Below are positions 26,017 through 26,592 of a DNA stretch of 37,699 bases, in pieces. Origin of the DNA: Promethearchaeota archaeon (GTDB lineage Archaea > Asgardarchaeota > Lokiarchaeia > Sigyniarchaeales > SOKP01); NCBI GenBank assembly GCA_016926735.1, contig JAFGOA010000025.1, positions 1 through 37,699 on the forward strand, in the 5' to 3' direction. The position numbers were made by a program, and so were the translations under genes. Every line of letters starts with the position of its first letter. Within the stretch, counting starts at the first letter, position 1. The notes beneath the pieces are model-generated. The model did no database searches, was not told the origin of the DNA, and was given only the letters and a program-made list of their open reading frames with translations.

Positions 26017-26592
26017 TTATTCAAATATTTCTTTTTCTACAAGCTCACAAATAATATGACCAATCATTATATGAGATTCTTGTATTCTTGGTATATCTTT
26101 AGATGGGATATCTAATAAGTAATCACAAAATTCGTTAATATCACCACCATATTGACCAGTCATTGCAATTGTGATCATTCCAATTTTATTTGCATTCTCA
26201 AACGCATTAATGATATTTTTAGAATTTCCTGATGTTGTTAATCCTATTAATATATCATCTTTTCGACCAAACGCATCAACTAACCTAGAAAATACTTGGT
26301 CATACCCATAATCATTAGATACCGCAGTTATATATGATGTATTGACATGTAATGCTTCGGCAAATAATGGAGCACGATCAATATAAAATCTACCAGATAA
26401 CTCTGCGGCTAAATGTTGTGCATCAGATGCACTACCCCCATTACCACAAAATAATACTTTACCATCATTTTTAAAGCATGTAACTATAACAGAAACAACT
26501 TGTTCTATATTTTGTAATAATTCAACATTAGCTAAAATATCATGCTTAATATCTATCGAATTTGATATGATCTCTTTTATTTTATTTTGCAT
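26017..26592 (-). CDS. gmhA: phosphoheptose (sedoheptulose-7-phosphate) isomerase, SIS domain
   Basis: KVLFCGNGGSASDAQHLAAELSGRF ... LIGLTTSGNSKNII ... MTGQYGG is collinear with E. coli GmhA. Confidence 0.75.
   Translation of the reverse strand: MQNKIKEIISNSIDIKHDILANVELLQNIEQVVSVIVTCFKNDGKVLFCGNGGSASDAQHLAAELSGRFYIDRAPLFAEALHVNTSYITAVSNDYGYDQVFSRLVDAFGRKDDILIGLTTSGNSKNIINAFENANKIGMITIAMTGQYGGDINEFCDYLLDIPSKDIPRIQESHIMIGHIICELVEKEIFE

Follow-up and report, generated by a model that had tools for sequence, protein, structure and literature searches.

The window analysed here is an entire contig of 37.7 kb, with 24.8% guanine plus cytosine (GC), and the gene under study is gmhA, which lies on its minus strand. 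A database entry exists for the identical GmhA protein, MBN1214217.1, with the label 'MAG: Candidatus Lokiarchaeota archaeon'. The original prediction for this DNA described a well-conserved SIS-domain GmhA carried by a phage near a glycosyltransferase operon, and suggested that the phage makes or diverts a heptose-type sugar. The gene and its flanking features are as follows.

26017..26592, minus strand: gmhA, D-sedoheptulose-7-phosphate isomerase, 191 amino acids with a single SIS domain, ATG start
26593..26645: divergent intergenic region of 53 bp between gmhA (minus strand) and a 126-amino-acid open reading frame (ORF) at 26646 (plus strand)
25515..25937, minus strand: 140-amino-acid ORF with an N-terminal signal peptide (MKKLITLCLFILLSFGVFAQ), directly 3' of gmhA
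25496..25516: terminator-like hairpin, an 8-bp stem followed by a T run, suited to work on both strands

Identity, active site and setting of gmhA

The window protein matched SIS_2 of Pfam at 2.6e-26 (92.8 bits against a cutoff of 27), and SIS was also matched. Its best NCBIfam model was TIGR00441 gmhA (1.2e-60, 204 bits, just short of the equivalog cutoff), followed by three more phosphoheptose-isomerase models. The top relatives in the PDB were the zinc-dependent GmhA structures 2xbl/2x3y of Burkholderia pseudomallei (E = 9e-53, 182 bits), and eleven other GmhA sequences were also among the top matches. Homology of the window protein to GmhA is certain from these comparisons. In a MAFFT alignment of the window protein with Escherichia coli GmhA and 13 viral homologues, the catalytic residues E64, Q171 and H179 and the zinc histidine H60 correspond to E65, Q172, H180 and H61 of the E. 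coli enzyme and were invariant in 15/15 sequences, and G53, S55, D94, T120, S121 and S124 (E. coli numbering) were invariant as well. The phosphate-binding T/S-T-S-x-x-S loop is kept as TTSGNS at positions 119-124, with Thr where E. coli GmhA has Ser119, and a GNGGS motif occupies positions 50-54; we take the phosphate loop (S119-T120-S121...S124) and the GNGGS motif to have the same roles as in GmhA structures.

The Glu-Gln-His triad is catalytic in GmhA, and Glu-to-Gln mutants are inactive (PMC4697000). DiaA, a paralogue of the same fold, has Ser at the position of the catalytic Glu, a DiaA-like Colwellia protein has Gln there, and some proteins annotated as GmhA are actually DiaA-like (PMC4697000). 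The window protein might accordingly be a non-enzymatic DnaA-binding factor that acts on replication initiation of the host or the phage, and it does match DiaA, both as an NCBIfam model (122.6 bits) and in the PDB (~1e-30, 110 bits). However, the GmhA models score 70-80 bits above the DiaA models, the catalytic Glu, Gln and His and the zinc His are retained, and the nearest cellular relatives lie in heptose operons, so that we give a DiaA-like role very little credence. With its triad, zinc His and phosphate loop intact, the protein has the full set of active-isomerase features and is not DiaA-like. These data indicate that gmhA encodes a GmhA-type isomerase with an intact active site, as originally predicted, and the protein is probably active as an enzyme.

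The ratio of non-synonymous to synonymous substitution rates (dN/dS) of gmhA was 0.19 in comparison with 92%-identical relatives (L002, L005). The gene has a GC content of 29.2% and a GC content at third codon positions (GC3) of 14%, and this low GC3 indicates a gene adapted to phage composition rather than a recent capture. By these measures, gmhA is a long-term resident under purifying selection, neither recently captured nor decaying.

The gmhA promoter presumably lies in the 53-bp divergent region. A sigma-70-like match was found on the minus strand at 26608-26579 (10/12), of a kind that occurs at chance frequency in AT-rich DNA, and the motif TATATATA stands 4 nucleotides 5' of the plus-strand ATG at 26646. 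On the other side of gmhA, the 140-amino-acid ORF, which returned no family match in Pfam and PHROG searches, is probably co-transcribed with it. The transcription unit would then comprise gmhA and the 140-amino-acid ORF and end at the hairpin at 25496-25516; two terminator-like sites were observed in the region against 0.3 expected from shuffled sequences. The 92%-identical relatives (L002-L005) are without the 140-amino-acid ORF and have a 167-amino-acid ORF directly after gmhA, and in a 501-kb relative yet another gene adjoins gmhA. Because the neighbour differs in this way, gmhA has no conserved operon partner.

Phage nature, likely host and ancestry

The contig encodes a gp32-type single-stranded DNA-binding protein (Pfam 1e-23, phrog_224 1.9e-31) together with other phage-like genes, namely those for an RlaP/phrog_388 nucleotidyltransferase, an RNA ligase, a Dam methylase, a DUF4326 protein, an HNH endonuclease and a serine recombinase. 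It also encodes an HD phosphohydrolase, PTH2, two NUDIX proteins and an endolysin-like CHAP protein whose N-terminus carries membrane segments, and most of the short ORFs had no family match. When 22.7 kb of the window were compared with GenBank phages by megablast, no match was returned, and tblastn of GmhA returned 13 records, all with less than 60% identity. Closer relatives were found in IMG/VR, where 25 loci carry related GmhAs, 17 of them on contigs of 21-27% GC and 44-501 kb from many samples. A 72%-identical GmhA (P0011) is encoded on a JGI contig of 501,337 bp that IMG/VR classes as viral. Near gmhA this contig shares with the window an MVP-like gene (813 amino acids) and ORFs of 215 and 107 amino acids, and it has a NUDIX gene ~5 kb off; T4 gene 30.3-like and NUMOD homing-endonuclease genes are present as well. 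We conclude from gene content and relatives that the window is a fragment of a very large AT-rich phage (with relatives of up to ~0.5 Mb), in line with the original prediction of a phage carrier, and that gmhA is conserved in this lineage.

The database label, and the failure to identify a gene for a terminase, portal or major capsid protein anywhere in the 37.7 kb, could be taken to mean that the contig is instead part of the chromosome or a plasmid of a Lokiarchaeon or another AT-rich cell, with gmhA as an ordinary cellular gene. The gp32, phrog_388, CHAP, Dam and RNA ligase genes, the intein, the HNH endonuclease, the preponderance of short ORFs without a family and the IMG/VR relatives all speak against this, and no tRNA or rRNA gene was found in the window. 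Moreover, a peptidoglycan hydrolase and a GmhA with Bacteroidota affinity do not suit an archaeal host. We therefore give a cellular origin next to no credence. Composition-based binning is error-prone at 25% GC, and the Lokiarchaeota label is most simply read as a binning error for such DNA. The MVP-like gene and the archaeal/eukaryotic-type PTH2 on this contig could give rise to false 'eukaryotic signature' calls in Asgard bins, which calls for caution in surveys.

To place the gene among cellular homologues, we scanned GTDB with one genome per species and counted over the best 80 loci, whose GmhAs are 57-68% identical to that of the window. A Bacteroidota label was carried by 73 of the 80, including Bacteroidales, Lentimicrobiaceae, Saprospiraceae, Chitinophagales and Flavobacteriales. 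Together with signal peptides ending in '...FAQ' or '...SAQ' and the peptidoglycan hydrolase, this affinity makes Bacteroidota the most likely host of the phage. On a 1.03-Mb Bacteroidales contig (L236), the gene order is GT2-GT4-HddA-GmhA-HddC-GmhB, and in the 47 loci of at least 10 kb among the best 80, HddC/GmhB-like genes were present in 38, GmhB in 35, HddA in 21 and HldE in 1. Correspondingly, the window gmhA has its ancestry, as judged from these homologues, in the GDP-heptose clusters of Bacteroidota. It lies on a viral genome, appears host-derived and is evidently retained under selection, as an auxiliary gene of a phage would be.

Probable source of the downstream enzymes and possible use of the heptose

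The original prediction stated that HldE and GmhB are missing from the window. Indeed, tblastn with E. coli HldE, GmhB, HldD, WaaC and WaaF and with viral HddA and HddC/GmhB as queries returned no match in the window, and the same queries returned none within 10 kb of gmhA in 17 AT-rich relatives (L008-L021, L024, L026, L032). As the 10 kb to each side of gmhA contain no kinase, phosphatase or nucleotidyltransferase, in the window as in these relatives, the GmhA product would be handed to enzymes encoded elsewhere. We consider it reasonably probable that gmhA is a solo auxiliary gene of a very large AT-rich phage, with host Bacteroidota enzymes finishing GDP-heptose. In such a scheme, GmhA would raise the flux from sedoheptulose-7-phosphate to heptose-7-phosphate in the infected Bacteroidota cell, which is the first committed step to nucleotide-activated heptose. 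The most probable recipients of its product would be the HddA, GmhB and HddC enzymes of the host GDP-heptose pathway, and less probable ones HldA/HldC-type enzymes encoded by the phage at distant loci. The heptose may serve to maintain or alter heptose-containing envelope glycans, for example to block superinfection or to keep progeny from adsorbing to debris; alternatively, it may be used to glycosylate phage components. An envelope-glycan purpose is suggested by analogy with other phages. In pelagimyophages, rfaE and many glycosyltransferases have been read as serving O-antigen modification against co-infection (PMC7029224), and phage gmhA and rfaE have been treated as lipopolysaccharide-related auxiliary metabolic genes (also bioRxiv 10.1101/2024.05.16.594516).

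Several points weigh against this explanation. The 204 bits of the window GmhA are 5 bits short of the TIGR00441 equivalog cutoff (209.45), the contig is labelled Lokiarchaeota in its database record, and the host call draws solely on GmhA affinity, Bacteroidota-style signal peptides and the endolysin-like CHAP protein. In addition, a neighbour-joining tree of 135 GmhAs separated phage from cellular sequences in only 21/50 bootstraps and was not used as evidence. To our knowledge, the purpose of phage heptose genes has never been tested experimentally.

The second explanation to be weighed is that the phage runs a nucleotide-heptose pathway of its own, with the other enzymes elsewhere in its genome, and that a phage glycosyltransferase heptosylates the virion, DNA or envelope. 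The candidate transferase in the window, and the ORF that the original prediction called its upstream partner, are laid out as follows.

17244..19586, minus strand: family-4 glycosyltransferase (GT4) with an intein, 780 amino acids; context only
18672-19586, minus strand: N-extein
17535-18671, minus strand: LAGLIDADG intein
17247-17534, minus strand: C-extein
19579..20589, minus strand: 336-amino-acid ORF (p336), overlapping the start of the glycosyltransferase by 8 nucleotides; context only

The intein-containing glycosyltransferase is real. The inserted segment of 379 residues begins with Cys (CLPNGK) and ends with VHN, after which the host protein resumes with CEAMACG, so that the insertion falls inside a conserved GT4 motif, between EGW-NLPL and CEAMACGTP. 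It matched LAGLIDADG_3 of Pfam with 25.8 bits, above the cutoff of 22.5, and Intein_splicing with 24.4 bits, under the cutoff of 35.8. A homologue of 66-72% identity in one relative (L024 19145-20419, IMGVR_UViG_3300029998_000037) has no intein and is contiguous over the insertion site (...GWNLPLCESMACG...). By these features, the insertion is a class 1 intein with a LAGLIDADG homing endonuclease. The spliced extein of 402 amino acids matched Glycos_transf_1 at 4.3e-12 and the GT4-conflict family with 35.5 bits (cutoff 26), and the nearest solved structures are generic group-1 transferases. GT9, to which WaaC and WaaF belong, is the heptosyltransferase family, and the window enzyme is classified by its matches as GT4 rather than GT9. 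This membership only lowers the case for a heptosyltransferase, because GT4 enzymes could in principle use GDP-heptose.

Nor does the position of the glycosyltransferase argue for a link with gmhA. It begins 6.4 kb downstream and forms part of another transcription unit, set apart by the hairpin at 25496-25516 and by a block of genes on the opposite strand (20664-23915). In the sense originally proposed, gmhA is thus not near a glycosyltransferase operon. The enzyme is only 22% identical (E = 0.007) to the GT4 inside a true phage heptose cassette, and comparison with the GT4 from the Bacteroidales heptose cluster detected no similarity. The supposed partner p336 has no glycan-related signature, and the proposal that it acts in a sugar pathway is not borne out: its one Pfam match, to Gp23, is weak and sub-threshold (1.5e-4), it has three database homologues, and a profile search of the PDB returned nothing. 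The p336 structure model was unusable (predicted local distance difference test score 38.7, from a 4-sequence alignment). Homologues of p336 lie 7.6-9 kb from gmhA in eleven relatives (among L012-L021, L024, L026), and the glycosyltransferase follows p336, and accompanies gmhA, in L024 only. The stretch from gmhA to p336 is therefore best described, from these arrangements, as a conserved synteny block and not as a functional pair of gmhA and glycosyltransferase; a functional link between the GT4 and gmhA is argued against.

Heptose genes are nevertheless found in related phages. AT-rich viral contigs were sampled by the N-terminal motif of a family of small ORFs that is also present in the window (MKYLKxFE family, listed below), which gave at least 120 stretches, only 2 of them further pieces of the 501-kb contig. 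Two contigs of this kind carry a solo HldA-type heptose-7-phosphate kinase (L065; TIGR02198 305 bits, cutoff 345) and a solo HldC-type adenylyltransferase (L040; TIGR02199 178 bits, cutoff 181.5). Clade-specific DNA-motif scans, which did not reach saturation, found HldA in 34 viral stretches and HldC in 27, and the two stand together on a 96-kb contig (UViG_3300030339_000014); a single-sequence HldA scan on non-conserved peptides gave 2 loci only. All three genes are present in each of two samples. Sample 3300035208 yielded a gmhA with 92% identity to the window gene (L005) and, on further contigs, HldA (L065) and HldC (L478); in sample 3300044712 the carriers are the 501-kb contig for gmhA, one of 43.7 kb for hldA and one of 159 kb for hldC. 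In these scans, gmhA was never found on one contig with hldA or hldC, even with gmhA contigs as long as 181-501 kb and HldA contigs as long as 235-531 kb. Hardly any homologous genes are common to the two sets of loci, which are linked solely by a DNA methylase of 43% identity in the vicinity of each. The gmhA and HldA/HldC contigs may be pieces of one very large genome or may belong to two related phage types, and the data fit both. No HldA homologue among the top 120 was labelled with the same Lokiarchaeota MAG, and close HldA homologues come from sample accessions other than that of the window.

In two related megaphage contigs, hldA lies immediately 3' of a baseplate-hub gene (Phage_base_V plus VanY/M15 peptidase), in L577 (ENA ERZ27297473 k141_239578, 531,023 bp) at 7838-10903 and in L575 at 6792-9891, and a faint GT25-like gene was seen 4 kb further along. 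An apparent 'GmhB' on gmhA contigs L062 and L097 was rejected, since it combines a Pnkp-like kinase with a HAD phosphatase, and the searches gave no convincing GmhB. Three contigs of 181-330 kb have a conserved gene for an SDR-family sugar epimerase/dehydratase at ~20 kb from gmhA (L043 752-1621, L130 7226-8137, L142 8971-9882); its best NCBIfam match is ADP-heptose 6-epimerase (heptose_epim) with 80 bits against a cutoff of 274.6, and its assignment is left ambiguous.

Other viral lineages encode compact heptose cassettes, whose genes we assigned by NCBIfam. One consists of GmhA, an HddC/GmhB fusion and HddA (L027), another of a mannosyltransferase-like gene, HddA, GmhA and GT4 (L028), and three more hold HddA, GmhA and a cytidylyltransferase-like gene (L022, L023, L025). 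Among the 80 viral HddA loci listed, GmhA was present in 27 and an HldE-C-like nucleotidyltransferase in 30, some of them then followed by GT4, and HldA-HldC-HldD cassettes occur on marine-type contigs of 33-43% GC.

These cassettes, the solo HldA and HldC genes from the same samples as gmhA, and the conserved gmhA...p336 synteny with the glycosyltransferase present in L024 favour a phage-run pathway. Set against them are the separation of gmhA from HldA and HldC contigs, the want of a convincing GmhB, the generic GT4 in its own transcription unit, the missing glycosyltransferase beside p336 in most relatives and the WaaC/WaaF queries without a GT9 match. We regard a phage-run pathway as conceivable but doubtful. 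The suggestion that phages make heptose thus holds for other viral lineages, which carry full gmhA cassettes, and is unproven for the lineage of the window. A bolder form of this idea, which we rate as unlikely, is that AT-rich Bacteroidota megaphages of ~0.5 Mb encode the complete nucleotide-heptose pathway as scattered single genes (gmhA, hldA next to the baseplate-hub gene, and hldC at a third locus) and that phage glycosyltransferases, for instance the GT4 with the intein, heptosylate the virion or re-coat the infected cell. If so, a phage with a scattered pathway would be an autonomous glycan-building system, like giant eukaryotic viruses. Whether gmhA, hldA and hldC occur together in one megaphage genome is the question raised by these findings.

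The isolation of gmhA, which lacks a linked downstream enzyme both in the window and in the 17 related loci, would also fit a role in carbon rerouting. Sedoheptulose-7-phosphate is an intermediate of the pentose-phosphate pathway, and draining it could perturb the non-oxidative branch of that pathway in the host, as with cyanophage talC. Cyanophages with heptose genes also carry talC (PMC7378029). However, the isomerisation is reversible and useless without downstream enzymes, GmhAs of this subfamily are nearly always inside heptose-glycan clusters in cells and other phages, and the window holds no other pentose-phosphate pathway gene. Carbon rerouting is accordingly held improbable, and the supply of a host GDP-heptose pathway by a solo phage gmhA remains the explanation we prefer.

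Other genes of the contig and comparison with known systems

The remaining features of the window are listed below.

21251-21643, 21640-22071, 22071-22364, 22380-22676, 22697-22840, 26646-27026, 27023-27349 and 34761-35216, plus strand: MKYLKxFE paralogues
23969-24643, minus strand: MKYLKxFE paralogue
36029-36397, plus strand: 122-amino-acid ORF whose match to the N6_N4 DNA methylase model is confined to the C-terminal part (profile 154-221 of 221)
36545-37162, plus strand: serine recombinase, 205 amino acids with a Resolvase domain, at the contig end and adjoining the 122-amino-acid methylase ORF
1112-2293, 11992-12606, 14803-15381 and 16255-16668, minus strand: RNA-repair/translation-related set of RlaP-type nucleotidyltransferase, RNA ligase (PF09414), HD phosphohydrolase and PTH2 (8.9e-33)
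4582-5760 (plus strand), 5796-6242 (plus strand) and 7951-9270 (minus strand): pentapeptide/beta-helix-like protein of 392 amino acids and two proteins with repeated 'YQW..NG' Ig-like motifs
20664-21254 (plus strand) and 11415-11837 (minus strand): two NUDIX hydrolases, with weak MutT and ADP-sugar pyrophosphatase matches for 20664-21254

The MKYLKxFE ORFs are small paralogues with a near-identical N-terminus (MKYLKxFE/MxHIKTFE) and often a C-terminal ...YNL. In several of them TATATATA stands ~4 nucleotides 5' of the ATG (4 matches against 0.11 expected), and in IMG/VR the DNA motif of the N-terminus forms tandem arrays of up to 8 copies on AT-rich contigs 180-330 kb long. What is conserved at the 5' end may be a regulatory element of the DNA or RNA just as well as a protein feature. 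An MVP-like gene of 832 amino acids at 31216-33714 (minus strand) matched MVP_shoulder at 2.4e-27 and Vault_3 at 3e-7 as well as SPFH/Band_7, and it is kept near gmhA in the 501-kb relative (813 amino acids; L006/L007) and in L024 (803 amino acids). Its domain matches mark it as a vault or SPFH shell protein of eukaryotic type carried by a phage. The PTH2 of the window is of the archaeal/eukaryotic type.

The pair of methylase fragment and resolvase recurs in L002, followed there by an ORF annotated with 524 amino acids (cut by the locus end) that has no Pfam match. The pair may be an IS607-like insertion, in which TnpB was not confirmed. The 'YQW..NG' Ig-like motifs are typical of Bacteroidota surface proteins; the 392-amino-acid protein and the two with these motifs have no significant family match and could be tail-fibre or decoration proteins. 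The NUDIX gene at 20664-21254 is divergent from the p336/GT4 pair, and the NUDIX gene ~5 kb from gmhA in the 501-kb relative is comparable to it in size (197 amino acids).

In fold and length the window protein resembles DiaA, to which its homology is detectable. DiaA is without the catalytic Glu, whereas the window protein keeps it and scores far higher on GmhA models. With bacterial GmhAs (E. coli GmhA/LpcA; B. pseudomallei 2x3y/2xbl) it shares a length of ~190 amino acids, a single SIS domain and end-to-end alignment, and its identity to Bacteroidota GmhAs reaches the 57-68% given above. The gene differs from theirs in being phage-borne and solo, outside any HddA/HddC/GmhB or HldE cluster.

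Phage gmhA as such is not new, because it is already accepted as an auxiliary metabolic gene: it has been listed among 'well-characterized' viral examples (PMC9238414), and a cyanophage with heptose kinase, isomerase and epimerase genes has been reported (PMC7378029). What is unusual in the window is the combination of a large AT-rich phage lineage, a Bacteroidota GDP-heptose ancestry and a gene that stands alone. Like the known phage heptose genes (phrog_1238 gmhA; rfaE/hldE and hldD of cyanomyophages and pelagimyophages; Caulobacter phage Cr30), it is host-derived and carried by a large phage. In contrast to them, the window GmhA matches phrog_14703 ('unknown function', 6.4e-43), phrog_1238 is not among its matches at E <= 0.001, and it is only 31% identical to the phosphoheptose isomerase of Cr30. 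Its carrier belongs to a GC-25% lineage of megaphage type rather than to marine T4-like phages, and its ancestry lies in GDP-heptose clusters rather than in the ADP-heptose pathway. The window thus extends heptose genes to poorly known, very large phages of 25% GC, apparently of Bacteroidota. The closest counterparts are the viral GDP-heptose cassettes (L027, L028, L022/L025), whose GmhAs are 47-61% identical to that of the window and have the same active site. These cassettes hold the full pathway within 2-4 kb, often with a GT4, whereas the window and its 17 relatives have gmhA alone, so that phage heptose genes come in two genomic styles, compact cassettes and isolated single genes.

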